64,000 nt of DNA from a virus, in the IMG/VR virus record IMGVR_UViG_3300005680_000007, positions 1 to 64,000 of that record. One strand, 5' to 3'. Position numbers and translations under genes: made by a program. Position 1 is the stretch's first letter. The number at the start of each line of letters is the position of its first letter. The notes under the pieces are model-generated. The model saw nothing but the letters and a program-made list of their open reading frames with translations, was not told the DNA's origin and did not search any database. Below are positions 39,010 through 64,000 of the stretch, piece by piece.

Positions 39010-39045
39010 CGAGCCTCCTGCGGTCGCGTTCCGACCAAACTCCAA

Positions 39046-39073: not shown

Positions 39074-39087
39074 AGAGGGACCGGGCT

Positions 39088-39777: not shown

Positions 39778-39783
39778 CGCGAC

Positions 39784-40473: not shown

Positions 40474-40477
40474 CCGC

Positions 40478-41122: not shown

Positions 41123-41517
41123 GCGGCCCGTGGCACCCTACAGGAAGGGCTCGCGTAAACCCTTCGAACCCAGAAGCTGCCGGAATTTGTGACCGTTGCG
41201 GCATGATGTTCTCCATGCGCGATCTCGTGCCGCAATATCAGTGGCAGGGGATGCAGCTGCAGAATATCGGCATTCTGGTTTGCACCGCGACCTGCCTCGA
41301 CACGCCGCAAATCCAGTTGAAGACGATCATCCTGCCGCCGGACCCGATGCCGCTGCAGGTCACGCGGCCGGAACGCTATGGCGAGAATGTGCCGTCCTTC
41401 ATGTCGACCGAAGACGGCGATCACCTGACCACCACCACTGGCGACAACCTGACCATGGCGATCCGCGTCACGCCGTCGCCCGACCCCAACACCCCGTATT
41501 ATTTCGATGAAGAATAG
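41119..41517 (+). CDS. hypothetical structural-module protein
   Basis: ATGA overlap. 132 aa. Confidence 0.45.
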   Translation: MSGPWHPTGRARVNPSNPEAAGICDRCGMMFSMRDLVPQYQWQGMQLQNIGILVCTATCLDTPQIQLKTIILPPDPMPLQVTRPERYGENVPSFMSTEDGDHLTTTTGDNLTMAIRVTPSPDPNTPYYFDEE

Positions 41518-41525
41518 ACCGCCCC

Positions 41526-44012
41526 ATGGCTAACGCCACCATGCTCAATCTGCCCGTCGCCACTGGGCTCGACGGGTCTGAATATGCGTGGATCAACCAG
41601 GGCGGCACCGACAAGCGCGCGACCCTTGCGGACATTGCCAACACCGCATCGGGCTTTATCCCGTTTGACCTCTCGAACCTCAATCCGATGCTGGTCACGG
41701 ACTCGTTCACGGTTTACGAGACCGCGACCGGCAATTACGCGCGCGCGACCTTCCCGAACGCAATGAAGGCCCTGACCGGGCTCACCGCGCTCGCCGTTCC
41801 GAACCTCACCAACGACTACCTGATCATCAACCGGGCGGCGGATAACACCACCTATAAGATCAACGTCAGCGCGTTCGGCCTGGCGAGCGGCAATCTGCCG
41901 GCGGGTGGCACCCGCGGGCAATTGCTCGCCAAGAACTCGTCGACCGATTACGACGCCACTTGGTCGTCGACGATCTTCGATGGCAGCGGCAATACCGAAC
42001 TCGCCTTCACCGCGACGGCCTCGGCGGTCAACTATCTCCGCGTCACCAACAATTCGACCGGCGGCACGCCGCTCCTGTCGTCAGATGGCGAAACCAACGT
42101 CCCGATCCGCATTGCCTCCAAGGCGGCGGCCTCGGTGTTCCTGCGCACCGACGGCACCGACCGCGTCACCGTGGGCTCGACCGGCATCGTCACGGTATCG
42201 GCTGCGGTCGCCTCGACCAATACCTCGACCGGTGCGATCGTGCTGTCCGGCGCATCGGCAGGCATCGGGCTCCCGGGGGCCATTTTTGCCGGTGGCAACG
42301 TCAATGCGGCGGCCTTGGTCCCGACCGGTGCTTCGGTCCCCAGCAATGGCATGTATTTGCCGTCGGCCAACACGCTGGGCTTTGCCACCAATTCCGGGGC
42401 CGTGGCCTCGATCGGCGCCACCGGAATCGTCACCCTGCTCGGAGCCGTGGCGTCCACCACCACCGGCACCGGCACCCTCGTCCTGTCCGGGGCTTCGGCC
42501 GGCATCGGCCTCGCTGGCGCGCTGTTTGCCGGCGGCAATGTCAACGGTGCCGCGCTCGTCCCCACCGGTTCGAGCGTGCCTGCGAACGGTGTCTATCTGC
42601 CGGCGGCCAATACCGTCAGCATCGCCACCAACACGACGGAGCGCTTCCGTGTTGACAGCGTCGGGGCGGTGCAGGTCGGCGCCGGCGCCATCACCACCGG
42701 CTATTCGTTCTCAAATATCCGCAACATCACCGGAGCCGTGTCGTCGCACGCCAACGTGTCGTCCGGGACCGTGCAATCCGACGTCACCACCCAGGCATCG
42801 GGCTACCTGACGCTGCTCGGCGTCCAGAACGCGGCCTTCACGCTGCCAATCCTGTACCACTACCGCGCCGCGCAGGGCACGTTCGGCGGTTCGGCGACCA
42901 TCACCAATCAGTACGGCTTTGCCGCAGGTTCGAACCTGACGGGGGCGGGCACCAATTACGGCTTCTGGACCGATCTTGCTGCGTCGGGTGCCGCTCGCTT
43001 TGCCTATTACAGTGCCGGTTCGGCTCCGAGCCTGCTGACCGGCATCCTGACGCTTGCTTCGGCGACCGCGTCCACGTCGACCTCCACGGGTGCCCTCGTC
43101 CTGACGGGCGCGTCCGGCGGCATCGGCCTGCTGGGCGCCATCTTCGCGGGGGGCAACGTCAACGCCGCCGCGCTGGTGCCGACGGGGTCCGCCGTCCCCG
43201 CCAATGGCATGTACCTGCCGAGCGCCAATACCGTCAGCTTCGCTACCGCCTCCACCGAGCGCATGAGGATCGATAGCGCGGGCAACGTCCAGGTCGGCGC
43301 CGGCGCGACCACCGCTGGCCGCATCTTCTCCAGCGTGAAGCAGATGACGGGCGCGGCCACGTCCTACGCCAACGCGACCTTTGCGCAGATCCAGTCCGAT
43401 GTGACGACGGCGGCGCATGGGTTCTTCTCGTCGCTCGCGGTTGCCAACGCATCGTTCACGCTCCCGGCCCTCTACGCTTTCCGCGCCATCCAAGGCTCGT
43501 TCGGCGGTTCGGCCACCGTTACCAGCCAGTTCGGGTTTATCGCCGACAACACGCTGATCGGGGCGACGACGAATTACGGCTTCTACTCGCTGCTCGCGGC
43601 ATCGGGTGCGACCCGCTACGCCTTCTACGCGGCAGGAACGGCGCCCTCGCTGTTCGCTGGCGTGACCAGCTTCACGGTGGGCACCGCCGCGACCTCGACC
43701 ACGACCGGATCGGTGGTCGTCACCGGCGGCATCGGTGCCAGCGGCGCGATCTACGCCGGGGGCCTGATCAACTCCGCGGCGGCCGTCGCCGCCCATTCCG
43801 CCACCGCAATTCCGGCCGGCGGCACCGCGGGCGCGGGCTTCGTGTTCTCGTCCACCGCGAATTTCGGGATGTTTTTCGGCTCCGGTGCGCCGACGCTCTC
43901 TGCTGCCCAGGGCTCGCTCTACCTGCGCTCGGACGGCTCGTCCACGTCGACGCGCCTCTACGTCAACACCAACGGCTCCACGACGTGGACCAATCTCACT
44001 TCCGCAGCATAA
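41526..44012 (+). CDS. tail fibre protein with tandemly duplicated modules
   Basis: 828 aa, Gly/Ala/Thr/Ser-rich, with internal repeats. Confidence 0.6.
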   Translation: MANATMLNLPVATGLDGSEYAWINQGGTDKRATLADIANTASGFIPFDLSNLNPMLVTDSFTVYETATGNYARATFPNAMKALTGLTALAVPNLTNDYLIINRAADNTTYKINVSAFGLASGNLPAGGTRGQLLAKNSSTDYDATWSSTIFDGSGNTELAFTATASAVNYLRVTNNSTGGTPLLSSDGETNVPIRIASKAAASVFLRTDGTDRVTVGSTGIVTVSAAVASTNTSTGAIVLSGASAGIGLPGAIFAGGNVNAAALVPTGASVPSNGMYLPSANTLGFATNSGAVASIGATGIVTLLGAVASTTTGTGTLVLSGASAGIGLAGALFAGGNVNGAALVPTGSSVPANGVYLPAANTVSIATNTTERFRVDSVGAVQVGAGAITTGYSFSNIRNITGAVSSHANVSSGTVQSDVTTQASGYLTLLGVQNAAFTLPILYHYRAAQGTFGGSATITNQYGFAAGSNLTGAGTNYGFWTDLAASGAARFAYYSAGSAPSLLTGILTLASATASTSTSTGALVLTGASGGIGLLGAIFAGGNVNAAALVPTGSAVPANGMYLPSANTVSFATASTERMRIDSAGNVQVGAGATTAGRIFSSVKQMTGAATSYANATFAQIQSDVTTAAHGFFSSLAVANASFTLPALYAFRAIQGSFGGSATVTSQFGFIADNTLIGATTNYGFYSLLAASGATRYAFYAAGTAPSLFAGVTSFTVGTAATSTTTGSVVVTGGIGASGAIYAGGLINSAAAVAAHSATAIPAGGTAGAGFVFSSTANFGMFFGSGAPTLSAAQGSLYLRSDGSSTSTRLYVNTNGSTTWTNLTSAA
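42450..43690. repeat. two tandem modules of about 620 bp (about 206 aa) inside the tail fibre gene, preceded by a partial copy at 42211-42449
   Basis: STxTGxLVLxGASxGIGLxGAxFAGGNVNxAALVPTGSxVPANGxYLPxANTVSxAT..ERxRxDSxGxVQVGAGAxT... recurs at protein and DNA level. Confidence 0.7.
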
Positions 44013-50639: not shown

Positions 50640-52961
50640 ATGGGATCATTGTGTAAAAGCGGTCCCGCGACCACCACGACGTCGACCAAGACCAAATCGG
50701 AGTCGGCCTATACGCCTTTCGCGCGCGACGAGATGCAGGACATCTACGGCCGCGTCTGGGAGGCTGGATCGACGCCATACACGCCGTTCACCGGCAATAT
50801 GGTCGCGGGGCTCAACCCGACGCAGCTTGGCGGCATCGACAAGATCACGGGCGCGACGAACTATCTCAACACCGCGGCGAATTACGCGCGCGAGGGCGCA
50901 GCGCCGATCTCGGATTGGGAGATCGAACGCTACATCAATCCGTTCACCAACAATGTCATCGACGCCACGCGGGCGAATTTCGCGGAGAACAATGCCCAGC
51001 AGCAGAGCCAGATCAGGGGCAATGCCGCGCTCCGTGGCGCGCTCGGCGGCGACCGGGCCGGCATTGCGCAGGCGGAAGCGGCGCGGCAGCAGAAACTGGC
51101 GCAAGACCCGATCATCGCCAAGATGCAGCAGGACAGCTACACGCAGGCGCTCGCGGCCGCGCAGGCCGACCGGGCCGCAAAGGCGCAAGGGGCTTATGGC
51201 TTCGGCGCGCTGCATTCCGGTGCGCTTGCCGGCGGCCAGTCTCAGATCGGGGCTGGCTCGCTCGAGCAGGGCGTGGATCAGGCAAGGCTCAATGCCCAGT
51301 ACCAGGAATTCATGCGCGCGCAGCAATACCCCTATCAGAATGCGCAATTCCTCGCGTCGGCCGGGCTGCCGCTCCTCACCGCGCAGGGCGGCACCCAGAC
51401 CGGCCAGAGCAGCGGCACCAGCACGCAGGTCCAGCAGGCGGCGCAGCCGAGCGTCTTGCAGCAGGCGGTTGGCCTCGGCACCGCGGCAATCGGCGCGTTC
51501 AGCGGCAACCCGTTCGCGTTCCTCGGCGGCCTGAACAGCGCCGCGGGCGGAATGCCATCGACCGGCGCGACCTACGGCGTCTCGCCAGGGTCTTCCGGCA
51601 TGGCATCGTTCGGCGGCGTGCCGTATCCGGTGTTCAACCGCGGCGGCCGCGTGCGTCCCGGCTACCGGAATGGCGGCTTCATCGACCGGGTCAACGAGCT
51701 CCGGCAGGCGATGCGCCGCGGCGGCGCGATCCGGCTTCCCGGCTATGCCGACGGCGGCGAAATTCCGTTCTGGGAGCGCTTCGCGCCGGCCGCGGAAGCC
51801 GTCCAGAGCGGCGAATTCGATCCGCAGGGGTCGAATTACCCGGCACCCATGGCAATGGCGCCAGAGGCCCCCGCTGAGTCTCCTGCGCTCGCCCGTGGGA
51901 TCACGCTTCCCCCGCAGATTGCCAGCCCGGGGGGCTCCGGCCCGATCATGGCTCCGGCCATGCGCCCGGCCATGCAGCCCGCGATCGCGCAGGCGCCAAT
52001 GGCGGCCGACGCACCGACCGATTTCTCCGCGCAGCGGGCATTCCCGCCGCGAGCCGCGCAGCCGGGCGGTGGCCTCTCCGAAGAAGCCCGCATGGCACTC
52101 ATCGCGGCCGGCCTCGGCATGATGGCCTCCAAGCATCCAAATGCGGCCGGCGCCATCGGCGAGGGCGGACTGATCGGCATCAAGCAATACACGAGCGGCA
52201 AGCAGACCAAAGAGAAGAACGAATTGGCGGCTCGCAAATTGCTGATGGATGCGGAGCAATTCGCCAAGACCCACGATTTGCGCGGCAAGACGCTGGACGA
52301 GACCAAGCGCTACCACGACATGACGATCCAGGAGCGCCGGGAGGCGGCTTCCGAGCGGTCGCAGGACCGCCGCGATGCGCTGGCCCGTCATGCTTTCCCT
52401 GGGACAGGGAAGGACGAGGACGGCAACGCCGTGCCGGGGATGTATCGCTACGACCCGGACAAGCAGGACTATGTGTTCAAGCCAGGCGCCGCGATCCAGA
52501 AGGGCGGCTCCGGTTCCGGACGGCCGCCGGCGGTGCTGCAGATCGCAGACGCGATGATCGCCGCGCGCGAAGAGGCCCGCAAGGCCAATCCGAGCCTTCC
52601 GCCGCTCAGCCGGGAGGAGGCGATCAAGTCGGCCCAGCGCGCCCCGCGCGACCGCGAGGACGTCACCACCCGCGAGCGGCTGGCCCAGAACCTCGCCAAG
52701 AACGACCCGAGTTTCACCATCGACAAGGCGCGCGAATTCTACGGCCTGCCGCCGCGCGTGATGCCGGACAAGAAGCCCGCCGAGAAGGGCCTGTGGGACC
52801 GCATGTTTGGCGGCGGGGACAAGAAGGCCGATGCGCCGAAGCTCAAGCCCATGACGCCCGAAGTCAGCGCCAAGGCGAAAGAAGCCATCGACGCCGGCAA
52901 GGACCGCAATGCCGTGATCCAGCGGCTGCGTGAAAACGGAATCGACCCGTCCGGACTGTGA
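50640..52961 (+). CDS. internal virion/ejection-type protein
   Basis: 773 aa, Gln/Ala/Gly-rich and low in complexity. It lies between the tail genes and the giant ORF. Confidence 0.45.
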   Translation: MGSLCKSGPATTTTSTKTKSESAYTPFARDEMQDIYGRVWEAGSTPYTPFTGNMVAGLNPTQLGGIDKITGATNYLNTAANYAREGAAPISDWEIERYINPFTNNVIDATRANFAENNAQQQSQIRGNAALRGALGGDRAGIAQAEAARQQKLAQDPIIAKMQQDSYTQALAAAQADRAAKAQGAYGFGALHSGALAGGQSQIGAGSLEQGVDQARLNAQYQEFMRAQQYPYQNAQFLASAGLPLLTAQGGTQTGQSSGTSTQVQQAAQPSVLQQAVGLGTAAIGAFSGNPFAFLGGLNSAAGGMPSTGATYGVSPGSSGMASFGGVPYPVFNRGGRVRPGYRNGGFIDRVNELRQAMRRGGAIRLPGYADGGEIPFWERFAPAAEAVQSGEFDPQGSNYPAPMAMAPEAPAESPALARGITLPPQIASPGGSGPIMAPAMRPAMQPAIAQAPMAADAPTDFSAQRAFPPRAAQPGGGLSEEARMALIAAGLGMMASKHPNAAGAIGEGGLIGIKQYTSGKQTKEKNELAARKLLMDAEQFAKTHDLRGKTLDETKRYHDMTIQERREAASERSQDRRDALARHAFPGTGKDEDGNAVPGMYRYDPDKQDYVFKPGAAIQKGGSGSGRPPAVLQIADAMIAAREEARKANPSLPPLSREEAIKSAQRAPRDREDVTTRERLAQNLAKNDPSFTIDKAREFYGLPPRVMPDKKPAEKGLWDRMFGGGDKKADAPKLKPMTPEVSAKAKEAIDAGKDRNAVIQRLRENGIDPSGL

Positions 52962-55900
52962 CCGACATCTCCTTCGACGACCTCCCGTCGGCAAAACCGG
53001 CGGATACCGGCCTTTCCTTCGACGACCTTCCTGCGGCCGCGCCCGCAGCGGAATCGGGCTATGTGCCGGAAGCGTTGAAGGGCTTCGCGCGCGGCGCGCA
53101 GGGCATGGTGACGTCGCCGCTGCAGGGTGTTGCGGCCGCGCAGTCGCAGGGCCCGGCGGCAATCGAACGCGCCGGACTTTCGGCCGCCATGGACCGCGTC
53201 ATGGCCGGCGAGGATCCCGCGCAGGCTGTGGAGAACGTGCGCGCGGCACCCCCGGCGCTGCCGCCGGTCACGGAAACGCCCGGCTGGCATGCCGCCGAGT
53301 CCTTCAAGAAAGCGACGGACCCGTATATCGCGCCCGCGAAAGGCTGGGAGGACAGCTGGACCGGCGATATAGCTGGCGGCTTTGGATCGGTCGCAGCCGG
53401 CATCGGCATGTCCATCCTCAATCCGGCCGCCGCCATGCTCGCGTTCGTCACGGCCGGCCAGGGCGAAGCGGCCGAACGCGCGGTGAAGGCTGGCGCTACG
53501 CCGGAGCAGATCCAGACCGCGGCCAGGCTCGGAACGGTCTCGGGCGCAACCGACGTGGTTGACGCGCTCCTGCCGATGATGGGCTCCTACGGCAAGACGC
53601 TCGGGCTCATCAAGCGGGTGGGCTATGGCGCTGTCTCCGGCGCGCTCGCGGAAGGCGGGCAGGAAGGCCTGCAGCAATTCATCCAGAACGCGATCGCGAA
53701 GGGCATCTACAAGCCCGACCAGGACTTGATGGAGGATGTGCCGCGCAGTGCGGCCATTGGCGCGATCGTCGGCGGGAGCATCGGCGGGTTCTCTGGCGGC
53801 GTGCAGAAGCCGGGGGCTGCGCCGGCAGCCGAGGCCCAGCAGTCCGCTGTGCAGCCAACTGCCGGGCAGCCCGCGGCCGACCCGCTCGAAGCCTTGATCG
53901 CGCGCGAAGCCGAGTCGCCGGCGCCGGACAATCCCGAACTCGACGCGCTCCTGTCCGATCTTGCCTCCCGCGCGACGGATTTCTCGGACCGCGCGCGCAG
54001 CGGTTCTCCGGTCGCTGCGCCTGCCCAGGCTGCCGAACCCGCCACCGAGCCGAGCGGGGCGCCGATCGATCCGATGTTCGCAGACCTGCCGGATGCGGAA
54101 GAAACCCCGCAGCGCGGCCCGAAAATCACCTATCTGACGCCGGATGCCATCCAGACCGACGCCGAGCGCTTCCAATATAAGGGTGGTGCCGACAAGGAAG
54201 GCGTCACCAGCGCGCTCAAGGACGTCAAGAAATGGGATGACCGTCTCGCCCCGCCTATTCTCGCGTGGGAGTCGGAAGACGGCAGCCTCTACGTCGTCAA
54301 CGGACACCAGCGCACGGCGCTCGCCAAGCGCGCCAGCGCCGCAGGTCAGCCGGACGTCTATGTCCCGGCCCGCATTATGCGTGAGGCTGACGGCTATACC
54401 CCCGAGTATATGCGCGCCCTCGGCGCCTTCCAGAACATCGCGGAGGGCACCGGGACGGCGCTCGATGCGGCGAAGGTGCTGCGCGCTAATTCGGCCGACC
54501 TCGCAGATGTGCTGCCGCCGCTGCCGCCGCGCAGCCAGCTTGTCCAGAACGCAAAGGGGCTGGCCGACCTGTCCGACGAGGCGTTCGGCATGGTGGTCAA
54601 CGACATCGTGCCGGAAGCCTACGCCGCGCAGGTTGGCAACATCCTGAAAGAGCCTGCCGAGCAGATGGCGGCGCTGGACGTTCTGGCGAAAGGCCAGCCC
54701 GCCAACGTCGACCAGGCGCGGATCATGGTCGAGGACATCCGCAACGCCGGATTCCTGAAAGGCGAACAAACCGGATTGTTCGGTGCCGAGGAATTTGCCC
54801 GCTCGCTTGTGCCCGAAAGGGCGCGTATACTGGACCGCGCCGTCAAGACGCTGCGCAAGCTCGGCTCCACGTTCAAGACCGCGGTGGAGCAGGAAGGCAC
54901 GCTGGCCGAGGCCGGCAACAAGCTCAAGCGCGCCGCCAACGAAAGGGCGCAGACCGAGAACGAAAGGCTCGCAGAGGTTCTTGCCAATGACGGGACGCGG
55001 AAAGGACCAATCTCCGATGCGCTTAGTGACGCCGCAAGAGCGCTCGCCGACGGCAAGCCCATCAATGCCGTCACGTCGCAATTCCTCTCCCAGGTTCGAT
55101 CTCTCACGCGAGGAACTCGTCCGGGCGTACAACGAAGCGCTGAGACTGACCGCGATGGACATGCGCGAGAACCGCAGCAGGCCGCGCTCTACTCGCTCGG
55201 ACGAGGACAGCAACGTCCTGTAGCGCCGAAAGTTCGCGCTGAAATCGAGGCCATGACGGCGCGCAATGCGCCGCTGGATGAAATCGTCGCGCACCCTGCC
55301 GTGTCCCGCGCCGTCGCGGAAATGCGCCGCCGCATCCCGACCGGTACACCGGAACAATTGCGCGATCCGGCATGGCAAGCGAAGCGCGTCTATGACTTCG
55401 GCGGCAAGCCGGTCAGAGGATTCGATGCTGCTGCTGATCGTCTGACGGAAAAGGCTCGTTCCTATGCGGGCGGCAAGGTGGAGAACGGGCGCCATGCCGT
55501 ACTCGTGCTTGGGCCTCCTGCGGCTGGCAAATCTACCTTCGCCAACCCGATCGCAAAGGCGATGGGCGCGGCCGTGGTCGACGCCGACGATGCCAAACTG
55601 GTCATACGCGAATATCAGGGCGGTGTCGGCACCGTCGCGGTTCATGAGGAAAGCTCTGCCCTGGCCGGTCGTGTGGCCTCGCGCCTGATCGGCGAGGGAG
55701 CCAATCTGGTTTTGCCGAAGGTGGGTGCCGCCGAGGCCAGCATCCGCAATCTGAAGAAGGCGCTGGAGGCCAAGGGCTACACGGTCGACGTCGCCCATGT
55801 GGCTGCAAATCCTGAGATTTCCGGCCGCCGGAACATTGGCCGCTGGCTCGAAACGGGACGCCTCGTCGACCCGGATTATATTCGGGAAGTGGGTGACAAG

Positions 55901-58900
55901 CCGCGGGAAGTCGCCTATATTCTGAGTAGAGAGGGTAATGACTATGTCGATGTCGATACCTCCCGAAGCCCCCCGAAAATCGAAGGAAAAGGCCCGCTCG
56001 CGAAGCTTCTCCGAGATCGAGGAGAGCGCGGAGAGCCTGTTTCTCGAGGAGATGGAGCGCAAGCCCTCTTCTCGCTCGGGCGACGGAAAGGCGTAACGGA
56101 TCAGGTCGATCTGTTCGGCGGCAGGGGAGACCAGTATGTCCTGCCGGGCGCCGAGAAGATCAGCGATGCCGAACTGGCGCAGCGGCGCGCGGATGCCCCG
56201 CTGCAGCCCAAGAAGCCGCAGAAGCCGGCCGAACTATTCTCGAACGACGATGCAAGCCAGCTAGGGCTTGGTCTGGAGCCGAAAGATGGACGCCGAGACG
56301 TTCGCCAGGGAGCACAAGGAGTATCTCCAAAACAACCGGCCGGACGTGCTCAAGGGCTTTCAGCGCGAAGGCGACCTGAGCAGGTATCTCTCTTCGATTG
56401 GGGAGCAGGCCGAAAGCCGGATGATCGACCTGCACGGCCAGATGAACAAGCAGGCGGGGGTGAACGACCTGCCGTACCTGCAGAAGGTGGCCGCGTTACA
56501 AAACCACCATCAATCGGCGCTCGAAATCGTCCGCGACGAAATCATCCTGCAGCCGCGGGACTAGCCGAGGCGATCAAGAAGATCGAGGAGCGTTCGCGCC
56601 TCAACTATCGCATCACCGATTCCGATCGCATCGGCGAAGGCGGACCCAAGCAGAAGGTCCGCGACAATATCGAAGCCGTTCGCGTCCTGCGCCAGATCGA
56701 GGAAGAAGGCCGCGGCCCGACTCCCGAGGAAAAGGCGAAGCTCGTCAAGTATGTCGGCTGGGGCGCGTTCGCGCAGGATGTGTTCGCACCCCACAAGCAG
56801 GATTGGAAGAAGGAACGCGATGCGCTCCGCTCGCTCCTGACCGACGCCGAATACGATTCCGCCAAAGCCTCGACCCTGAATGCCCACTACACGTCGCCGG
56901 AAGTCATCCGCGGCATGTGGGACGTGATGGATCATTTCGGGTTTTCGGGTGGCCTTGCGCTCGAGCCGTCGGCCGGCATCGGCCATTTCATCGGTCTCAC
57001 CCCCGACCACGTCGCGCCCAAGACGGCATGGACGGCGGTTGAACTCGACGCCATCACCGGACGCATCGCCGCCGCGCTCTATGGCGGCTCCGAGGTTCAC
57101 GTCGAAGGCTATCAGGATCTCAAGCGACCGTCGAATTACTACGACCTCGTCATCTCCAACGTGCCGTTTGGCGACTACAACATCACCGAAAAGCCCTACG
57201 GCCGCTATCCCATTCACGACTTCTTCTTCGTCAAGTCGCTGGACAAGGTGCGCCCGGGCGGCATCGTCGCGTTCATCACGTCCCGCTACACTATGGACCG
57301 CATGGATCCCGCGACGCGGCGCGAATTCGCGAAGCAGGCTGACCTCGTCGGCGCCATCCGTCTCCCGGGCGGCCGCAAGGGCGCGTTCGCCGGCAATGCC
57401 GGAACCGAAGTGACGACCGACATCATTTTCCTGCGCAAGAAGGTGCCGGACGAAAAGCCTTATCCGCAGAAGCCATGGCTAGAGACCAAGGAGATCAAGA
57501 CACCGGACGGCCCGGTCAAGATCAACGAGTATTTCGCCGCCAATCCACAAATGATGATGGGCGAAATGCGGCTGACCGGATCGATGTATTCGGACAAGGA
57601 GCCGGTGCTGGTCGGGACCGCGGAGGGATTGCGAGAGCGCATTGCTCAGGCCGCGCGCGACAACATGGAGGCCGGAGCATTCCTGCCGCGCGGCGTGCCG
57701 GAGCCGGTCAATATCGATAGTTCGGACGTCGATCCGACGCTGAAAGAAGGCGCGCTGTTCGTGAAGAACGGCAAGGTCTACCAGCGCCAGAATGGCGTTG
57801 GCGTCGAGCAGAAGCTTTCCCCCGACGACGTCGACCGCGTCAAGCGGCTGTCCGAGATGCGGGGCACGGTGAACGACTTGCTCGCGGCGCAGCTGGGCGC
57901 GAGCGACAAGGGCACGCCGGCGGACCTGCGCCGTTCGCTTGCCAAAACCTACGAGGCTTTCGTCAAGAAGTGGGGCCCGATCAATCTCGAGGAGCGGACG
58001 GTCACGTCCCGCGTCAACAAGGAAGGCGAAAACGTCGTCATTGTCCGCACGCCGAACCTGACCCCGTTCAAGGGCGATCCGGATGCATGGAAGGTCTCGG
58101 CGATCGAGAAATACGATCCAGAGACGGGCAAGGCGACGCCAGCCGCGATCCAGACCAAGAACGTGATCGAGGCACCGACCGAGCGCCAGATCAACGGGCC
58201 GGCCGATGCGCTGGCTGCGTCGCTAGACAAGCATGGTGCTGTGGACGTCTACGACATCGCGGACATGCTGGGCACGTCGGTCGAGGATGCCGTCAAGAGC
58301 CTGGGCGATACGGTGTTCGTCGATCCGGACGGCCGCCAGTATGTGACCGCCGATCAGTACCTTTCCGGCAATGTCGTGAAAAAGCTGGAAGAGGCGCGCG
58401 CGCTTGCGCAGGATGACGCCTCGTTCCAGCGCAACGTGGACGCCTTGGAGAAGGTGCAGCCCGTTCCGCTGGAGCCGTCCGACATCACCGCGCAATTCGG
58501 TGCCCCGTGGGTGCCGGAGCACGTCTATAACGATTTCATCAAGGATGTGCTGGGTGGTAGCGGGGAGGTCAAGAAGGTCCCGCTGACGGGCGAATGGCGC
58601 GTCACGATCAACGCAGCATCCCGAGATGCTCGCGCGAAGTATGCGACCGATCGCGTGCCGATCGACAAGATATTCAAGGCCGCGATCAACAACCAGCAGA
58701 TTACGGTGTGGGATCAGGTCGCGGACGACAAGCGGGAGGTCAACCAGAAAGAAACCGAAGCGGCCCGGATCAAGACCGAGGCGATGAAAGAAGCCTTCGC
58801 GGGCGATCCGAACCTCGGGATTGACGGATGGGTGTGGCAGGACGGGGCCCGCGCCGCCGAGCTCGCCGCCATCTACAACCGGACCTACAACAATCTCGTC

Positions 58901-61900
58901 CCCACCAATTTCGACGGCTCGCACCAGACGCTGCCCGGCCTCAACCGCATGTTCGCCGATCGCAAGCACCGGCTGGATGCTATCTGGCGCATGGTCACGA
59001 AGGGCAACACGCTGCTCGCCCATGTGGTCGGTTCCGGCAAGACCGTTACCATGATCGCCGGCGGCATGGAGATGAAGCGGCTGGGCCTGATCAACAAGCC
59101 CGCCTATGTGGTGCCGAACCACATGCTCGAGCAGTTCGCGCGGGAATTCATCGAAGCCTACCCGAATGCCAAGATCATCGTCGCCGAAAAGGACGAGATG
59201 ACGCGGGACAACCGCAAGGCCTTCTTGGCCAAGGTGGCGGCAAACGACTGGGACGGCGTCGTTATCACGCATGACGCCTTCGGCCGCATCAACATGGCGA
59301 AGGAATTCCGCCAGCAATTCATCCGCGACCAGATCGCCGAACTTGAGCGGGTGAAGACCGCGGAGGCGAAGGAGGCGGGCAAGGACTCGCCCACGGTCAA
59401 GGCGCTGGAAAAGGCCAAGAAGCGGCTGCAGGACAAACTGCAGAAGCTTTTGAACGAGGATCGCAAGGACGAGGGCACGTCGTTTGAGGAGAGCGGCGTC
59501 GACTTCCTGTTCGTCGACGAGGCGCACAAGTTCAAGAACCTCGCATTCGTGACGCGGCTGCAGCGGGTGAAGGGGCTTGCGCAGGGCGAGAGCCAGCGCG
59601 CCGAGGACCTGTCCCTGAAAATCCGCTACCTCGACCAGAAGCGCCCCGGCCGCTCGGCGGTTTTCGCAACCGGCACGCCGGTATCGAACACGATGGCCGA
59701 ACTCTGGACCATGCAACGCTACCTGCAATACGACAAACTGCGGGAGGCCGATCTTGACACGTTTGATGCATGGGCATCGACCTTCGGCAAGGTCGTCAAC
59801 AACATGGAATTGTCGGCGGACGGCCGCACCCTGAAAGAGGTTTCATCCTTCTCCCGCTTTGTGAACGTGCCGGAACTGGTCTCGCTCTATTCCGAGATTG
59901 CCGACACCAAGACCGCGGACATGCTCAACCTGCCGCGGCCGCAGGTGGTGGCGCCGGACGGCAAGCCCGGCATCGAGATTGTGAAGGTCTCGCCATCGGA
60001 AGCCGAAGAGCGCTACATTGAAGGCCTGGTGAAACTGGCCGAGGAATTGAAGGGCAAGCGGCCGGAGCCCGGCAAGCCCAATATGCTGAGCGTGGTCGGG
60101 CTGGGCCGCAAGGTCGCGACCGATGCGCGCCTTGTCGGTCTGCCCGTCAATGAGGGCGGCAAGATCGCCACGGCCGCGCGCAACATCTTCCAAATCTGGA
60201 AGGATGGCAAAGAGCCCGGCACCGTGCAGATGGTGTTCCTCGACATGGGCGTGCCGCAGACCAAGGCGAAGCCGAAAAAGGCGGACCCGGATGGCGACGT
60301 CACGATCACGGACACTCCGGACCCGATCTTCGCGAAATACAACGTCGATCTCTATGCTGACCTGAAAGCGCGCCTTGTCGCCATGGGCGTGCCGGCCAAG
60401 CAAATTGCCACGATCCACGAGGCGACCGACGACCAGAAGAAGGCCAAGCTGTTCTCGCGCGTGCGATCGGGCGATGTTCGCGTGATCATCGGCTCGTCGG
60501 AGAAGATGGGCGTCGGGACCAATGTGCAGGACCGGCTCATTGCGATGCACCATTTGGACGCGCCGTGGAAGCCCGCGGAAGTGGAGCAGCGCGACGGCCG
60601 CATCGTGCGCCAGGGCAACAAAAATCCGAACGTCCGCATCCTTCGCTATGTGACCGAGCGTTCGTTCGACGCATTCATGTGGCAGAAGCTGGACACAAAA
60701 TCGAAATTCATCGGGCAGGTGCTGTCCGGTGCAAAAGGCGCGCGTCACGCCGAGGACATTGACAATCCGCTGCCGGAAGCAGCGGAGATGAAGGCCGCGG
60801 CGTCTGGCGACCCGCGCATCATGGAGTTGGCCGAACTCGACCGGAAGGTCCGGCAACTGGCGGCGCAGAAGCGTGTGTTCGACGCATCCAAGGCCCGCGC
60901 GGTGTCCGAACTCGCCATGACCAAGGGCCGCGTCAAGCAGTATGAGGATGCGCTGCCGGCGGCCGAGATGGACGCGGCGAAGGTCGAAGATCTGTCGGGA
61001 GACAAGTTCAAGGTCACGATCCAGGGCAAGGAATACGACGACCGCCGCGAGGCCGGAAAGGTCATTCTCGATGCATTGCTCGCGCGCGATGCCCGTTCCT
61101 ATTATGCGCCGAAGCGGATCGACATCGGCACGGAAATGTCGGGCTTCCCGCTCGAAGTTGTGGCGCATGGCCGTTATGGGGACGGCGCGGCCTATCTGGC
61201 CGTGACGCCCGTGGTGCAGGCCAGCAAGAATTACAGCGGCTTGTCGGACATAACGATCAACGACCAGACAGATCCAGCCGGCCTCATGCTCAGGTTTGGC
61301 AATCTCCTCAAGAGCATCGCTCTGGAGCCGGACCGGATCGAGCGCGTGCTGAAAGAAGAGCGCGCAAACGTCCCGCGGCTGGAGAAGGTCGCGGGCGAAA
61401 CCTGGCCGAAGGATGCCGAACTGCAGCGCGCGCGCGCCGATCTGGACGCGCTGACCAAGGAATTGACCGGGGCGAAGGAGGAGAAGCCTGCGGAGGCGGC
61501 TCCTGCAACTGACGCGGTGGATACTGAAGGCTGGACGGCAGAGTCCCTCGTGGGACCGGATGCCGGGTTCACGCATTGGCAGATTAGGGACGCCGCCGGG
61601 AACCCAGTCACGAAAATCGTCGGTGGCACCGCAGAGTCCGCAATCCGAAAGGCAGCGGAGAAACCCGAGGCGCTGTTCGACATCTCGCGCGACCTGACAC
61701 GGCTCGCCCAGAAGGACCGCGGGGAGATCGAGCGCCGCATTACCGCAATCGCCCGGCAGGTCATGGGGGCGCATGTGAGGGTGGCGTTTCAGGACGCGAT
61801 TCCGCTGCCGGACGATGCTGTCGAAGCGTGGGGCGCGAAGGCCAAGGGCCTCTATACCGCCGCAGGACGGTATATCCCGGCGCATCGGCTGATCGACATC

Positions 61901-64000
61901 GCCATGGCTGACCCGATGTACCGGGATCAGGTCAGCACCGCCTATCACGAGCTTTTCCACGGCGCGGAAAACCTGCTGCTGCGTGACGCGGAAATGGCCG
62001 TGCTCAAGGCAGAGGACGCGGAGTTGCGGCAGATCGCGGCCGACTATACCGGGATGAGCCGTGCGGAAGCGGCTGAACTCGCGGGCTTCGAGGTCCGCGC
62101 GATCGCGGCGCAGGCCTATGCGGACATGCGCAACCAGCCGCGCTCGGTCGATCTCCTGTCCGGAGCGGCCCGCAAGGTGCTGGAAAAGCTGCGCCAGATG
62201 TTCAAGCGCATCCGCAACGTCATGCGCGGGCTGGGCTACCAGACGTCGCAGGACATCTTCTCGGACTTCTATGAAGGCCGCATGGCGGCGCGGGCTGCGA
62301 AGGAACGGCCGTTCGTGCGGGAAGCGGCGTCCGTCGTGCCCGGCGGTGGCACACCCACCCCGCAGCAGCGCCGCTCCGTCATGGAGCGCATGGACATGCG
62401 CCCGCTGGACCGGGCATTGCGGGTGCCCTTCGACGTGTTCGGCGGCACCAACCAGAAGGGCGAGTGGGACCCGGGCCTGCGCCTCTCCGAGAAGGCGGCG
62501 AAGATCATCAAGGACGCCAAGTTCTCGGGTGGCGGCAAATTCCACTGGCTCAATCCCACGCTGGAACGCGCGCGTGCCGGACTGATTGACCGATACGGTC
62601 TCGACCCCGCCTATGTCGAGCGGGAGCGCCAGCGGGCGCTGGACGAGCGCCGCATCATGGGCGTGGTCCCCGAAGTGATGCAGACATTGAAGGAGAACGA
62701 CGTCGGGTCCGCCGAAGCGATCGTTTTGCAGAAGATCCTGACTGGCGAGCAAATCTCCGACGCCAACCTCGAAGCGCTCGCCGCGCCGATCCGGCAGGCC
62801 ATTGATGTATTCGGGCAGGAGGCGGTCGACCTCGGCCTCCTCTCTCAGGAATCCTTCGACCGCAACAAGGGCGCCTATCTGCATCGCGTCTACCGCAAGC
62901 ACGAGACCGACCAGAACCCGCTGGTGAAGTGGGTCTCCCAGATGGCGTCGACCCGCCGCAAGAAGATCATCGGCAACCAGTTCAAGGGCCGGGGCCTCTG
63001 GAAGGAAGTCGCAGCGAGCACGGTCAACCAGGCACCGAAGGGCTCCAAGGTCTCGATCGGCGGCACGCAATGGGAAGTCCGCGGCTACAAGGGTAAGAAG
63101 GCCGTGCTCTGGCGCGACTATACGCCGGCAGAGCGCGAGCGCATGGGCGAAATCCTCGACGCCCGCTACACCATCGCCAAGACCTATATGGTCATGGCGC
63201 ACGATCTGGCGACCGGCCGCTTCTACAAGGACATCGCGGACAATCCGGAATGGTCGTCGGATCAGGAGCCAGCGTCCGGCGCGTGGAAGAATGCTGCGGA
63301 ATACGGCCGGCACTGGGCCGACCCCGACATCGAATGGGTCAAGGTCCCCGACACCAAGATCGCGTCCAGCAACACGCCCCGCTATGGAGCGCTTGCCGGC
63401 CGGTTCGTGCGCGCTGAAATCTGGCGCGACATAAACGAACTTGAGCAGATGCAGAGCCCGACATGGTGGAACACCATCCTCACGCAATGGAAGCTCAACA
63501 AGACCGCGCGCTCCCCCGTCACGCACATGAACAACGTCATGTCCAACGCCGTGTTGATGGACATGGCGGACGTGCGCGCTCGCGATCTCTACCGCGGCAT
63601 CCGCTCGATGGTGAAGCAGGACGCGCTCTACAAGGAGGCGGTGGACAACGGCGCCTTCGGCGGCGACATGATCAGCCAGGAAATCCGGGACAACGTACTC
63701 CGGCCGATCCTCGAGGAGATCGAGAACCAGGCGCAGGCCAAGTCCCCGGTCGGCATGGTAGAGAAGGTCATGGCCGGGCTGTTCTCCAAGGGCGCGCTGG
63801 TGGGCGCTGCCTATGGTGCTGCTGGCGGTGCGTTGGTCGGCGGGCCGGTCGGTGCGGTGGCCGGTGCGGGCGTCGGGGCCGTGGCCGGCGCGGCCGCGCG
63901 CAAGCCGATCGACAAGTTCGACGAGAAGATGCTGCAGGCCTACCGGCTCGAGGATGAAGTCTTCCGCATGGCGACCTATACGCGCCGGATCGACCAAGGC
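52958..64000 (+). CDS. giant polyvalent protein (ParB-like, P-loop kinase-like, N6-MTase, DEAH/SNF2 helicase, HExxH peptidase-like); 3' partial
   Basis: Frame 2 (start coordinate mod 3 = 2) has no stop from the GTGA overlap at 52958 to nt 64000. The track lists no closed frame-2 ORF in this span. Hand translation is protein-like except for three short stretches (see findings). Confidence 0.7.
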   Translation, partial: MTDISFDDLPSAKPADTGLSFDDLPAAAPAAESGYVPEALKGFARGAQGMVTSPLQGVAAAQSQGPAAIERAGLSAAMDRVMAGEDPAQAVENVRAAPPALPPVTETPGWHAAESFKKATDPYIAPAKGWEDSWTGDIAGGFGSVAAGIGMSILNPAAAMLAFVTAGQGEAAERAVKAGATPEQIQTAARLGTVSGATDVVDALLPMMGSYGKTLGLIKRVGYGAVSGALAEGGQEGLQQFIQNAIAKGIYKPDQDLMEDVPRSAAIGAIVGGSIGGFSGGVQKPGAAPAAEAQQSAVQPTAGQPAADPLEALIAREAESPAPDNPELDALLSDLASRATDFSDRARSGSPVAAPAQAAEPATEPSGAPIDPMFADLPDAEETPQRGPKITYLTPDAIQTDAERFQYKGGADKEGVTSALKDVKKWDDRLAPPILAWESEDGSLYVVNGHQRTALAKRASAAGQPDVYVPARIMREADGYTPEYMRALGAFQNIAEGTGTALDAAKVLRANSADLADVLPPLPPRSQLVQNAKGLADLSDEAFGMVVNDIVPEAYAAQVGNILKEPAEQMAALDVLAKGQPANVDQARIMVEDIRNAGFLKGEQTGLFGAEEFARSLVPERARILDRAVKTLRKLGSTFKTAVEQEGTLAEAGNKLKRAANERAQTENERLAEVLANDGTRKGPISDALSDAARALADGKPINAVTSQFLSQVRSLTRGTRPGVQRSAETDRDGHAREPQQAALYSLGRGQQRPVAPKVRAEIEAMTARNAPLDEIVAHPAVSRAVAEMRRRIPTGTPEQLRDPAWQAKRVYDFGGKPVRGFDAAADRLTEKARSYAGGKVENGRHAVLVLGPPAAGKSTFANPIAKAMGAAVVDADDAKLVIREYQGGVGTVAVHEESSALAGRVASRLIGEGANLVLPKVGAAEASIRNLKKALEAKGYTVDVAHVAANPEISGRRNIGRWLETGRLVDPDYIREVGDKPREVAYILSREGNDYVDVDTSRSPPKIEGKGPLAKLLRDRGERGEPVSRGDGAQALFSLGRRKGVTDQVDLFGGRGDQYVLPGAEKISDAELAQRRADAPLQPKKPQKPAELFSNDDASQLGLGLEPKDGRRDVRQGAQGVSPKQPAGRAQGLSARRRPEQVSLFDWGAGRKPDDRPARPDEQAGGGERPAVPAEGGRVTKPPSIGARNRPRRNHPAAAGLAEAIKKIEERSRLNYRITDSDRIGEGGPKQKVRDNIEAVRVLRQIEEEGRGPTPEEKAKLVKYVGWGAFAQDVFAPHKQDWKKERDALRSLLTDAEYDSAKASTLNAHYTSPEVIRGMWDVMDHFGFSGGLALEPSAGIGHFIGLTPDHVAPKTAWTAVELDAITGRIAAALYGGSEVHVEGYQDLKRPSNYYDLVISNVPFGDYNITEKPYGRYPIHDFFFVKSLDKVRPGGIVAFITSRYTMDRMDPATRREFAKQADLVGAIRLPGGRKGAFAGNAGTEVTTDIIFLRKKVPDEKPYPQKPWLETKEIKTPDGPVKINEYFAANPQMMMGEMRLTGSMYSDKEPVLVGTAEGLRERIAQAARDNMEAGAFLPRGVPEPVNIDSSDVDPTLKEGALFVKNGKVYQRQNGVGVEQKLSPDDVDRVKRLSEMRGTVNDLLAAQLGASDKGTPADLRRSLAKTYEAFVKKWGPINLEERTVTSRVNKEGENVVIVRTPNLTPFKGDPDAWKVSAIEKYDPETGKATPAAIQTKNVIEAPTERQINGPADALAASLDKHGAVDVYDIADMLGTSVEDAVKSLGDTVFVDPDGRQYVTADQYLSGNVVKKLEEARALAQDDASFQRNVDALEKVQPVPLEPSDITAQFGAPWVPEHVYNDFIKDVLGGSGEVKKVPLTGEWRVTINAASRDARAKYATDRVPIDKIFKAAINNQQITVWDQVADDKREVNQKETEAARIKTEAMKEAFAGDPNLGIDGWVWQDGARAAELAAIYNRTYNNLVPTNFDGSHQTLPGLNRMFADRKHRLDAIWRMVTKGNTLLAHVVGSGKTVTMIAGGMEMKRLGLINKPAYVVPNHMLEQFAREFIEAYPNAKIIVAEKDEMTRDNRKAFLAKVAANDWDGVVITHDAFGRINMAKEFRQQFIRDQIAELERVKTAEAKEAGKDSPTVKALEKAKKRLQDKLQKLLNEDRKDEGTSFEESGVDFLFVDEAHKFKNLAFVTRLQRVKGLAQGESQRAEDLSLKIRYLDQKRPGRSAVFATGTPVSNTMAELWTMQRYLQYDKLREADLDTFDAWASTFGKVVNNMELSADGRTLKEVSSFSRFVNVPELVSLYSEIADTKTADMLNLPRPQVVAPDGKPGIEIVKVSPSEAEERYIEGLVKLAEELKGKRPEPGKPNMLSVVGLGRKVATDARLVGLPVNEGGKIATAARNIFQIWKDGKEPGTVQMVFLDMGVPQTKAKPKKADPDGDVTITDTPDPIFAKYNVDLYADLKARLVAMGVPAKQIATIHEATDDQKKAKLFSRVRSGDVRVIIGSSEKMGVGTNVQDRLIAMHHLDAPWKPAEVEQRDGRIVRQGNKNPNVRILRYVTERSFDAFMWQKLDTKSKFIGQVLSGAKGARHAEDIDNPLPEAAEMKAAASGDPRIMELAELDRKVRQLAAQKRVFDASKARAVSELAMTKGRVKQYEDALPAAEMDAAKVEDLSGDKFKVTIQGKEYDDRREAGKVILDALLARDARSYYAPKRIDIGTEMSGFPLEVVAHGRYGDGAAYLAVTPVVQASKNYSGLSDITINDQTDPAGLMLRFGNLLKSIALEPDRIERVLKEERANVPRLEKVAGETWPKDAELQRARADLDALTKELTGAKEEKPAEAAPATDAVDTEGWTAESLVGPDAGFTHWQIRDAAGNPVTKIVGGTAESAIRKAAEKPEALFDISRDLTRLAQKDRGEIERRITAIARQVMGAHVRVAFQDAIPLPDDAVEAWGAKAKGLYTAAGRYIPAHRLIDIAMADPMYRDQVSTAYHELFHGAENLLLRDAEMAVLKAEDAELRQIAADYTGMSRAEAAELAGFEVRAIAAQAYADMRNQPRSVDLLSGAARKVLEKLRQMFKRIRNVMRGLGYQTSQDIFSDFYEGRMAARAAKERPFVREAASVVPGGGTPTPQQRRSVMERMDMRPLDRALRVPFDVFGGTNQKGEWDPGLRLSEKAAKIIKDAKFSGGGKFHWLNPTLERARAGLIDRYGLDPAYVERERQRALDERRIMGVVPEVMQTLKENDVGSAEAIVLQKILTGEQISDANLEALAAPIRQAIDVFGQEAVDLGLLSQESFDRNKGAYLHRVYRKHETDQNPLVKWVSQMASTRRKKIIGNQFKGRGLWKEVAASTVNQAPKGSKVSIGGTQWEVRGYKGKKAVLWRDYTPAERERMGEILDARYTIAKTYMVMAHDLATGRFYKDIADNPEWSSDQEPASGAWKNAAEYGRHWADPDIEWVKVPDTKIASSNTPRYGALAGRFVRAEIWRDINELEQMQSPTWWNTILTQWKLNKTARSPVTHMNNVMSNAVLMDMADVRARDLYRGIRSMVKQDALYKEAVDNGAFGGDMISQEIRDNVLRPILEEIENQAQAKSPVGMVEKVMAGLFSKGALVGAAYGAAGGALVGGPVGAVAGAGVGAVAGAAARKPIDKFDEKMLQAYRLEDEVFRMATYTRRIDQG
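54119..54420 (+). other. ParB/Srx-like N-terminal nuclease domain of the giant ORF
   Basis: KITYLTPDAIQTDAERFQYKGG...ILAWESEDGSLYVVNGHQRTALAKRA. Confidence 0.6.
55065..55223 (+). CDS. +1-frame island 1 nested in the giant ORF (52 codons from ATG; coding signal from about 55095)
   Basis: Frame 0. Reads ...FDLSREELVRAYNEALRLTAMDMRENRSRPRSTRSDEDSNVL* (TAG 55221-55223). Hand-counted third-position G+C is 24/27 here against 14/27 in frame 2. Confidence 0.35.
   Translation: MPSRRNSSPRFDLSREELVRAYNEALRLTAMDMRENRSRPRSTRSDEDSNVL
55480..55900 (+). other. P-loop kinase-like (zeta-toxin/AAA_33-like) domain of the giant ORF
   Basis: GRHAVLVLGPPAAGKSTFANPIAKAMGAAVVDADDAKLV. Confidence 0.45.
55938..56096 (+). 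CDS. +1-frame island 2 nested in the giant ORF (50-52 codons)
   Basis: Frame 0. GAGG at 55931-55934, ATGs at 55938, 55944 and 55950. Reads ...SFSEIEESAESLFLEEMERKPSSRSGDGKA* (TAA 56094-56096). Third-position G+C is 35/44 against 24/46 in frame 2. Confidence 0.35.
   Translation: MTMSMSIPPEAPRKSKEKARSRSFSEIEESAESLFLEEMERKPSSRSGDGKA
56286..56564 (+). CDS. +1-frame island 3: TnpV-like ORF nested in the giant ORF
   Basis: Frame 0. GGAG at 56275-56278, 7 nt before the ATG. Reads MDAETFAREHKEYLQNNRPDVLKGFQREGDLSRYLSSIGEQAE...NDLPYLQKVAALQNHHQSALEIVRDEIILQPRD*. It resembles TnpV. Third-position G+C is very high, whereas frame 2 is Arg/Pro/Gly-rich. Confidence 0.55.
   Translation: MDAETFAREHKEYLQNNRPDVLKGFQREGDLSRYLSSIGEQAESRMIDLHGQMNKQAGVNDLPYLQKVAALQNHHQSALEIVRDEIILQPRD
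56565..57450 (+). other. gamma-class N6-adenine DNA methyltransferase domain of the giant ORF
   Basis: NYRITDSD...YVGWGAF..., motif I LEPSAGIGHF, motif IV ISNVPFG, and IVAFITS. Confidence 0.75.
58950..60700 (+). other. DEAH/SNF2-type helicase domain of the giant ORF
   Basis: AHVVGSGKTVTM (Walker A), FVDEAHKFKN, ATGTPVSNTMAELW, VIIGSSEKMGVGTNVQ, QRDGRIVRQGN. Confidence 0.75.
61946..61960 (+). other. HExxH zinc-metallopeptidase-like motif in the giant ORF
   Basis: STAYHELFHGAEN, in frame 2. Confidence 0.45.

Follow-up and report, generated by a model that had tools for sequence, protein, structure and literature searches.

Small genes that lie wholly within a larger gene, on the same strand and in another reading frame, are known from several systems: Rz1 in Rz of phage lambda, B in A and E in D of phiX174, and comS in the giant srfA-B of Bacillus. 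Each of these is fully embedded out of frame and has its own initiation, comS likewise inside a very large multidomain gene, and the overlaps involve structured or enzymatic regions and are lineage-restricted. The stretch of DNA analyzed here comprises positions 1 to 64,000 of the IMG/VR virus record IMGVR_UViG_3300005680_000007 (these 64,000 nucleotides are called the window, and coordinates refer to it unless another sequence is named), and the subject is a giant open reading frame (ORF) for a polyvalent protein (52958..64000, plus strand), within which three short stretches, the islands, carry a coding signal in the +1 frame. One of them, island 3, is very probably a complete nested gene of the TnpV family. 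Unlike in the cases of Rz1, B, E and comS, the overlap would here concern interdomain linkers, the nested frame is apparently the older one, and there may be up to three nested genes in one host gene, as the giant gene is called below.

In ShiLan, a mycobacteriophage DNA methylase gene holds, in another reading frame, an HNH endonuclease (Arsenault, Gosselin and Gogarten 2025, PMC11855218). That case and the present one share a complete small gene in another frame of a phage DNA-modification gene, a host frame that is free of stops, a nested stop at the very end of the inserted stretch, and a host product predicted to be a harmless loop or linker. The ShiLan gene is, however, a homing endonuclease passenger and was treated as a selfish insertion with no detectable ribosome-binding site (a leaderless GTG start was proposed) and a narrow distribution, whereas the genes considered here would encode a TnpV-family helical protein or small peptides, have canonical Shine-Dalgarno (SD) sequences and ATG starts, lie in polyvalent interdomain linkers, occur across phyla and show no evidence of a mobility of their own.

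Polyvalent proteins of phages and conjugative elements were defined by Iyer, Burroughs, Anand, de Souza and Aravind (2017, PMC5512222), in a paper in which the words TnpV, overlapping, frameshift and linker do not occur. The giant protein resembles this class and the P1 DarB-like methyltransferase-helicases in its many conflict-related domains and its position beside virion genes, and the homologue in Pseudomonas phage 8P is annotated as structural; it differs from the class as described in its dual-coding linkers. TnpV is known from Tn4451/Tn4453 and related Clostridial transposons, and its role in excision was postulated from homology with lambda Xis (PMC3158075). Island 3 lies above the Pfam threshold for this family, but classical TnpV is free-standing and found beside recombinase genes, whereas the copy in the window lies inside another gene. 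Neither a nested TnpV nor phage 8P was found in the literature searched, and the nested arrangement is apparently unreported.

The TnpV-family gene of island 3 and its relatives

Frame 2 of the window (codon start modulo 3 = 2) opens with a GTG and is free of stops from 52958 to 63997, i.e., over 3,680 codons, and the ORF continues past the end of the window. The original prediction had described this frame and, within it, three stretches in which the coding character moves to frame 0 and ends in a stop, while frame 2 reads Arg/Pro/Gly-rich filler. This description was borne out both by the G+C content at third codon positions (GC3) and by a codon-usage model, trained on the window's own genes, with which frame 0 was scored against frame 2 along the 11-kb ORF. 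Frame 0 was favored only at 55028-55237, 55928-56137 and 56228-56587 (islands 1, 2 and 3; advantages of +25.6, +11.5 and +85.6 nats), and ten ordinary genes of the window had no scoring window with a frame switch. Between 56280 and 56580 the frame-2 GC3 drops to 0.28-0.36 and that of frame 0 is 0.79-0.87; the dips of the host GC3 at islands 1 and 2 are weaker (0.44-0.56), and in five other disordered linkers of the giant protein the value stays at 0.65-0.91. The frame-0 stretches end with TAG at 55221-55223, TAA at 56094-56096 and TAG at 56562-56564, and the host-frame filler over them consists of 47-59% Arg, Pro, Gly and Ala.

Island 3 (56286..56564, +) is an ORF of 92 amino acids (aa) in the +1 frame of a host linker, with an SD sequence GGAG (56275..56278, +) 7 nucleotides (nt) upstream of its ATG; start, ribosome-binding site and stop all lie inside the open host ORF. 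The overlying host linker of 93 aa (56285..56563, +) is 59% Arg, Pro, Gly and Ala, with a host GC3 of 0.30. When the product was compared with the profile PF14198 (TnpV), the family which the original prediction had proposed for it, it scored 44.8 bits (E = 1.4e-11, cut-off 27 bits) over profile positions 25-111 of 111, positions 1-24 being absent from this copy, and it also matched phrog_24764 (E = 1e-7), a PHROG family whose function is not assigned. A HMMER scan of 1.8 billion representative proteins yielded 61 homologues, mostly free-standing proteins of 90-105 aa that were aligned from first to last residue; island 3, with its 92 aa and its own ATG and stop, is like these in size. An AlphaFold model of the product, with the homologues as alignment, has four helices and a pLDDT of 95.5. 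The exact 92-aa product has been called as a gene in an independent assembly, and a 3.1-kb Logan contig from run SRR2082602 is 100% identical and gapless over 56122-59233, with both island 3 junctions included, which excludes an assembly error for this island. We regard island 3, with high confidence, as a nested TnpV-family gene in a dual-coding linker.

The same arrangement was met elsewhere, and in all nested cases the host frame is the nested frame minus 1. In the closest relative (L005, 63% identical) the layout is the same, with the methyltransferase frame one base behind the small gene and open from the start of the contig through the small gene into the NYRIT... block of the methyltransferase. 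Nested TnpV with full overlap was found in a Verrucomicrobia-like contig (L108), in five Clostridial loci (L012, L018, L063, L080 and L013, with host ORFs of >1,000-2,400 codons) and in a plasmid of Cohnella, one of the Bacilli (L103, NZ_CP051681.1), and nested copies also occur in proteobacterial contigs. The nested genes of Clostridia and Cohnella are full-length TnpV (E = 6e-41 and 1e-30). The giants of Cohnella and of the Clostridial locus L080 contain Pfam-detectable N6-methylase and/or SNF2 domains, that of L012 has a weak ResIII match, and in that of L063 no domain was detected with Pfam. For the Cohnella plasmid, the PLSDB gene table lists TnpV only, though an ORF of 2,073 codons spans it.

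A weakly similar small gene directly precedes the methyltransferase block in the Paraburkholderia and Pseudomonas plasmids pEMT1 (L002, NZ_CP026110.1), pBN4 (L003) and p12969-2 (L004). In Pseudomonas phage 8P (L110, MT152150.1) an unannotated +1-frame ORF of 90 aa (31545-31817 of that genome) lies within the coding sequence 26390-41827 for a 5,145-aa "structural protein", where it too directly precedes the methyltransferase block. At this spot in the plasmids and 8P the nested GC3 is 0.76-0.84 (0.84 for the 8P ORF), the host frame there having a GC3 of 0.36 (pEMT1) or 0.43 (8P), and the 8P product is similar to the pEMT1-type small proteins at z = 6.7-9.3. An SD-like sequence lies 6-10 nt upstream of the ATG in nine of the ten nested TnpV-type genes that were checked, L108 being the one without.

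Two further loci differ from this pattern. A contig of a Verrucomicrobiota metagenome-assembled genome (L109, JBAOIL010000030.1) carries at 5800-7300 a decayed copy of the nested arrangement, in which frameshifts link the TnpV frame to the host linker frame and this to the methyltransferase; the gene call there (P0212) is a chimeric 417-aa "methyltransferase" with a TnpV Pfam match, and the downstream helicase is split into many small ORFs. In L079 (73-705) the host frame, open for 210 codons, is the C-terminal tail of the upstream gene, spans the whole TnpV-type gene and ends 23 nt past the TnpV stop with no methyltransferase fused to it, a layout that could be intermediate between the separate and the fused states. 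The Pusillibacter locus L104 was considered as an unfused ancestral layout and rejected, its flanking ORFs being unrelated to the Clostridial giants. A search of IMG/VR gave no TnpV-type matches, and a first TnpV alignment was too diverse to serve as the basis for a pattern search.

The free-standing copies serve as a natural control for the openness of the host frame. A stop can arise in the host (-1) frame only if a nested codon has T in its third, G+C-rich position, and among 59 distinct TnpV ORFs, the -1 frame has no stop in seven, one stop in one and 3-15 stops in the other 51. The seven stop-free ORFs are exactly those that lie inside long -1-frame ORFs, six of which exceed 1,000 codons, the seventh being that of L079. 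The GC3 of nested copies is 0.69-0.84, that of most free-standing copies 0.37-0.66, with three free-standing copies at 0.69-0.76. In the Clostridia, nested copies have a GC3 of 0.72-0.74 versus 0.46-0.54 for the host gene, and when their nested genes were resampled with host codon usage the frame was open in only 0.02-0.14% of trials (P of 2e-4 to 1.4e-3). In the relatives, the openness of the host frame thus goes beyond chance.

Close relatives of the 833-aa frame-2 segment were absent from the genome, viral and metagenome contigs searched. Substitutions were compared in three divergent pairs, with differences per site at nested codon positions 1, 2 and 3 of 0.26/0.24/0.40, 0.36/0.25/0.44 and 0.33/0.26/0.57. 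Change is thus highest at position 3 of the nested codons and lowest at their position 2, the third position of the host codons, and amino-acid identity is 0.55-0.64 in the nested frame and 0.27-0.48 in the host frame. Together, the substitution pattern and the higher identity in the nested frame argue that the nested frame, which is under purifying selection in the TnpV-type genes, drives the evolution of the sequence, the host frame being kept free of stops.

The two smaller islands

Island 2 (55938..56096, +) is a nested +1-frame ORF of 50-52 aa at the C-terminal border of the host protein's zeta domain. An SD-like GAGGG (55931..55935, +) lies 2 nt before the ATG at 55938 and 8 nt before that at 55944, so that the in-frame ATGs and SD sequences which the original prediction had noted for islands 2 and 3 are both present. 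The product has an acidic helix motif (FSEIEE...LEEMERK). An ATG-initiated +1 ORF of 52-65 aa is present at the same position in all six ParB-zeta relatives for which the DNA was fetched, and these share just 33-50% identity; their ATG is formed by a T-ending Asp, Asn or His codon and the following G. At this position the host GC3 converges to 0.48-0.59, for gene GC3 values that range from 0.24 to 0.86. The chance of an ATG followed by an open frame is 0.03-0.35 per genome, the product being ~2e-5 if the genomes are roughly taken as independent. At the level of the peptide, the similarity of island 2 between the window and the relative L077 reaches z = 11.4, and that between L077 and L078 z = 6.5; host-guided codon alignments showed +1-frame conservation against L077 only, a relative in which a GGAG lies 6-7 nt upstream of the island-2-type ATG. 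No Pfam, PHROG or NCBIfam match identified the peptide as a homologue of the epsilon/PezA antitoxins, and an antidote-like role for it would be pure speculation. We consider island 2 to be a conserved nested gene with somewhat better than even confidence.

Island 1 (55065..55223, +; alternative ATG at 55017) is a candidate nested +1-frame ORF of 52 aa in the linker between the ParB-like region and the zeta domain. Frame 0 leads frame 2 by 16-26 nats, with a host GC3 of 0.44-0.50, and the per-codon likelihood of frame 0 is at the level of a real gene, that of frame 2 at the level of an off-frame. The +1 frame is open over 103-154 codons at the equivalent position in L105, L106 and L107, and L077 and L078 have an ordinary linker there; in the window, the frame is open far upstream, back to 54759. 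Island 1 could represent a fossil or a site entered by frameshifting as well as a nested gene, and in the last of these roles, where it is the weakest of the three islands, it remains a doubtful candidate.

Islands 1 and 2 are further connected by a 21-nt near-repeat (55187-55207, +, and 56066-56086), situated 8-14 nt upstream of their frame-0 stops. It shows one mismatch to a shared degenerate pattern that matches only these two sites in the window; the pattern was built from the pair itself and its value is therefore descriptive only. The repeats translate as LYSLGRG and LFSLGRR in the host frame and as STRSDED and SSRSGDG in the nested frame, and could represent a shared host-frame motif, e.g., a processing site, or a trace of a common origin of the two islands.

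The proposed explanation and its alternatives

The islands are probably nested small genes in dual-coding interdomain linkers of the giant polyvalent protein. Ribosomes translating frame 2 would read straight through the linkers, which would give an Arg/Pro/Gly/Ala-rich flexible tether, and other ribosomes would initiate within the same mRNA in the +1 frame to make a small separate protein, translation of which would end at a stop of its own, precisely at the beginning of the following host domain. An ATG is available as internal start at all three islands and an SD sequence at at least two of them. The small proteins would be a TnpV-family four-helix protein from island 3 and, from island 2, a conserved peptide of ~50-65 aa, acidic and associated with the zeta domain, and we infer from the sequence that both the host and the nested products are made. 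Such an arrangement could have arisen when a small gene between neighboring genes was read in its -1 frame, naturally poor in stops, and the neighbors were thereby joined; the fusion would gain a linker and keep the small gene, and the overlap may serve co-expression or may just record the history of the fusion. Overprinting of small genes in linkers was the first of four options in the original prediction, and the evidence backs it strongly at island 3, well at island 2 and weakly at island 1. The other three, i.e., recent fusions that left fossils, programmed +1 shifting and assembly indels, fared badly.

A number of results speak against nested genes. A Foldseek search of the island 3 model against the Protein Data Bank gave nothing below E = 3, and the pEMT1/8P-type small proteins reach an hhalign probability of 7% and pairwise z <= 5.5 with TnpV, so that a homology between them would be weakly supported. 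Islands 1 and 2 have no match in Pfam, PHROG or NCBIfam. No clear SD lies upstream of island 1, whose peptide has only a weak cross-lineage similarity to L105 (z = 2.5), and when island 2 of the window is set against that of L077, the peptides of the host frame are as similar as those of the nested frame, and counts of substitutions fail to tell the two frames apart. In a test conditioned on the host peptide and the host GC3, the islands score only z = 2.4-3.3, and one control linker scores 2.15. Within the window, synonymous shuffles left frame 2 free of stops with a probability of 0.05-0.47 at island 3; at island 2 this probability was 0.34-0.40. How far a frame can stay open by chance in this genome is usefully shown by an internal control, the 542-codon ORF at 20140-21768, a composite of which only the last third (aa 367-512 by PF07750) belongs to the GcrA family, with an ATG at 21229 (MSFEWSD...), the ~360 codons upstream being the accidentally open -1 frame of the gene 20513-21232, whose stop overlaps the start as ATGA. 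Given the shuffles and the GcrA case, the openness of frame 2 proves nothing inside the window, and relatives are needed; the claim that chance openness is unlikely therefore failed within the window (P of 0.05-0.47) and was upheld only with comparative data.

That islands 1 and 2 are fossil C-termini, the untranslated remnants of separate genes whose stops were bypassed by 1-nt indels and which retain an old codon bias, is unlikely. In favor of fossils, each island stops exactly where sense restarts in the host frame, the peptides of islands 1 and 2 are without a known family, and island 1 lacks a clear SD and has a frame that is open to 54759. Frequent fusion and fission are, moreover, known for polyvalent proteins (PMC5512222). 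A fossil would, however, have decayed in relatives that share 33-50% identity, and six of these have the island-2-type ATG ORF, while in the low-GC relative L106 the host GC3 climbs to ~0.5 in the overlap, which speaks for a present constraint and not for a leftover bias. Nor do the island peptides occur in frame in any homologue: a BLASTP comparison with 42 host homologues gave no in-frame counterpart at E < 0.04. For island 3, the own start, purifying selection and cross-phylum conservation exclude a fossil.

An artefact of composition appears quite improbable. Islands 1 and 2 would then be Gly/Arg/Glu-rich linkers with A/T-ending codons, e.g., rare-codon clusters that pause translation, and G+C-rich first positions would mimic a +1 frame with no small protein behind it. 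Host codon position 1 is indeed G+C-rich in all linkers (0.62-0.85), +1 ORFs of 50-150 codons are common within the giant ORF, and the control linker comes close to the islands in the conditional test. Against this stand the five other linkers of the same protein, which hold their GC3, the likelihoods of island 1, which are those of a gene in frame 0 and of an off-frame in frame 2, the recurrence of the dip at the same position in relatives, with reversed direction in a low-GC genome, and the conservation of the ATG through T-ending Asp, Asn and His codons; to island 3, this explanation is inapplicable.

It is very improbable that the giant ORF is an illusion of high G+C content, i.e., that separate genes are connected by a frame which is open by chance and linkers which are untranslated in frame 2. 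Openness by chance does occur in this genome, as over the ~360 codons before GcrA, antisense ORFs reach 1,107 and 1,384 codons, and PGAP places the helicase starts of the plasmids downstream of the small gene. The available starts, however, contradict separate genes. After island 1 there is an ATG at 55253 in frame 2, but no start is found in 55900-56330 for the segment after island 2, nor in 56250-56780 for the conserved N-terminus of the methyltransferase, the first start after island 3 being the GTG at 56780, 72 codons into the conserved domain; two of the three resumptions thus lack ATG, GTG and TTG, as had been predicted. PGAP's start in pEMT1 lies downstream of the conserved block DYTITAADQLGEGG, and the only start before the conserved methyltransferase block is the ATG at 5548 of the plasmid, 130 nt upstream of the nested gene, so that in the two cases checked the host protein would have to start upstream of the nested gene. 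Furthermore, the host frame is kept open in Firmicutes of 47-55% G+C, where 3-15 stops would be expected by chance, and in the ParB-zeta homologues one protein extends over islands 1 and 2. RefSeq treats the overlap inconsistently: in the plasmids, the genes annotated as "DEAD/DEAH box helicase family protein" are started by PGAP ~175 codons late, with loss of the conserved block.

Translation of the linkers in the host frame is also suggested by the homologues with long N-terminal extensions, 18 of 22 of which have an upstream Q-x-x-L-F motif (of the QLDLF/QLSLF type, QLDLFS in the examples read). In 10 of the 22, the sequence IRPDGRETLA is the -1-frame shadow of the conserved TnpV sequence YGRMAEKHW. 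Homologues without a nested gene (P0146, P0170) have an N-terminal motif of the Q-x-x-L-F type, a short or Pro-rich linker and then the enzyme. In the window, a host-frame QVDLF lies at 56102..56116 (+) and further sites of this type at 56229-56243 and 56379-56393; others were found at 5581-5607 of L002 and just past the nested stop in L012, L063 and L101. Next to the dual-coding linkers, the variants QVDLF, QVSLF, QLDLFS, QLSLFP and QFSFDF recur, and in the window, L005 and L079 one motif is the -1-frame shadow of the TnpV sequence YLSS[IV]GEQA. These motifs resemble QL[SD]LF, which we take to be the consensus for binding the bacterial sliding clamp, and might bind the clamp.

Programmed frameshifting, either by a +1 shift into the islands, which would produce truncated isoforms, or by a -1 shift out of TnpV, which would produce a TnpV-methyltransferase fusion, is extremely improbable. 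A possible site is the run at 55969-55979 (given as C6-A4 in the original prediction, the sequence in fact reading C6-G-A4), and the frame of island 1 is open far upstream. The ATGs of islands 2 and 3, however, are preceded at 4-8 codons (8 for island 3) by frame-0 stops, which leaves almost no room for a shift into these islands, the coding signal of island 2 begins upstream of the C-run, the nested genes start where free-standing homologues start and have their own SD, none of ten nested genes contains an X_XXY_YYZ heptamer, and a shift would not need an open host frame across the whole nested gene, which nevertheless is open. Finally, that assembly or sequencing indels created false changes of frame has a negligible probability, since the Logan contig is gapless over island 3 and both its junctions, many independent assemblies, among them complete plasmids and an isolated phage, show the same architecture, and indels would not yield complete small ORFs with start, SD and stop.

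The giant gene and the meaning of its linkers

The window has a G+C content of ~63% and represents a phage or prophage region, with genes for a large terminase, portal, virion structural and tail fibre proteins, DnaB, a DNA methyltransferase and a GcrA-like protein; the last of these points to an alphaproteobacterial host for the phage. The giant gene lies downstream of the terminase, portal, virion structural and tail fibre genes, and its GTG start shares the sequence GTGA (52958-52961) with the stop of the preceding gene for a protein of 773 aa. This suggests that the giant gene may be translationally coupled to the preceding gene of the virion module; the 773-aa protein itself has no Pfam or PHROG match, and its gene is not on record in a second assembly. 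Opposite the giant gene there are two antisense ORFs, 52739-56062 (-; 1,107 codons) and 59843-63997 (-; 1,384 codons), both of which are probably the usual by-product of high G+C coding sequence and not genes.

Pfam matches on the giant protein comprise Zeta_toxin, SNF2-rel_dom/ResIII, Helicase_C, Gly-zipper and a weak match to the Eco57I methylase. The zeta-toxin-like kinase domain (55493..55894, +; PF06414, E = 4.9e-14, aa 846-979) has the homologues P0001-P0042, and ddrB-ParB is present in homologues of the host protein. DNA and protein homology to the methyltransferase and SNF2 helicase module (56603..60616, +) starts with a conserved N-terminal block, NYRITD...GEGGPKQK, 39 nt past the stop of the nested TnpV gene; SNF2/ResIII covers aa 2015-2195 and Helicase_C aa 2481-2553. 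In DNA searches of plasmids and phages, only the methyltransferase part of the giant gene was matched. The ORF is best explained as one real gene for a protein in which a ParB-like region, a zeta-like kinase, a DNA methyltransferase, an SNF2 helicase and further domains follow each other. Such a polypeptide unites several unrelated conflict-related domains (the methylase being assigned from the weak Eco57I match and the conserved N-terminal block) and is encoded by phages or conjugative elements, as indicated by the virion genes upstream and by homologues on plasmids and in phage 8P; these are the features of polyvalent proteins.

In bacteria and their mobile elements, long overlaps of genes on the same strand are considered rare and often meet with doubt. 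Here, the nested frame encodes a recognizable family, the free-standing TnpV copies provide a natural control, as they have 3-15 stops in the frame in which nested copies have none, and conservation of the arrangement extends from Clostridia to Proteobacteria and includes isolated phages. A simple route of gene fusion is suggested, in which the intervening gene is kept and a disordered linker is obtained at no extra cost. There are also consequences for annotation, as gene callers give either the giant gene or the small gene and not both, and IRPDGRETLA, a conserved N-terminal motif in many methyltransferase-helicases, is in fact the shadow cast by a TnpV motif. TnpV, a family to which no function has been assigned, gains a specific candidate partner, and phage 8P offers a tractable system in which a nested small gene lies next to a methyltransferase. 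We tentatively raise a broader possibility, which we think less likely than not: that the polyvalent proteins of phages, plasmids and conjugative elements routinely form their tethers by "fusion through a gene", i.e., by reading small genes in the -1 frame, each linker concealing a functional partner protein that is necessarily made and inherited together with the neighboring domain. If this were true, the window would hold three dual-coding linkers in one gene, in which the methyltransferase-helicase would be paired with a TnpV-family protein and the zeta kinase with an acidic, antidote-like peptide.

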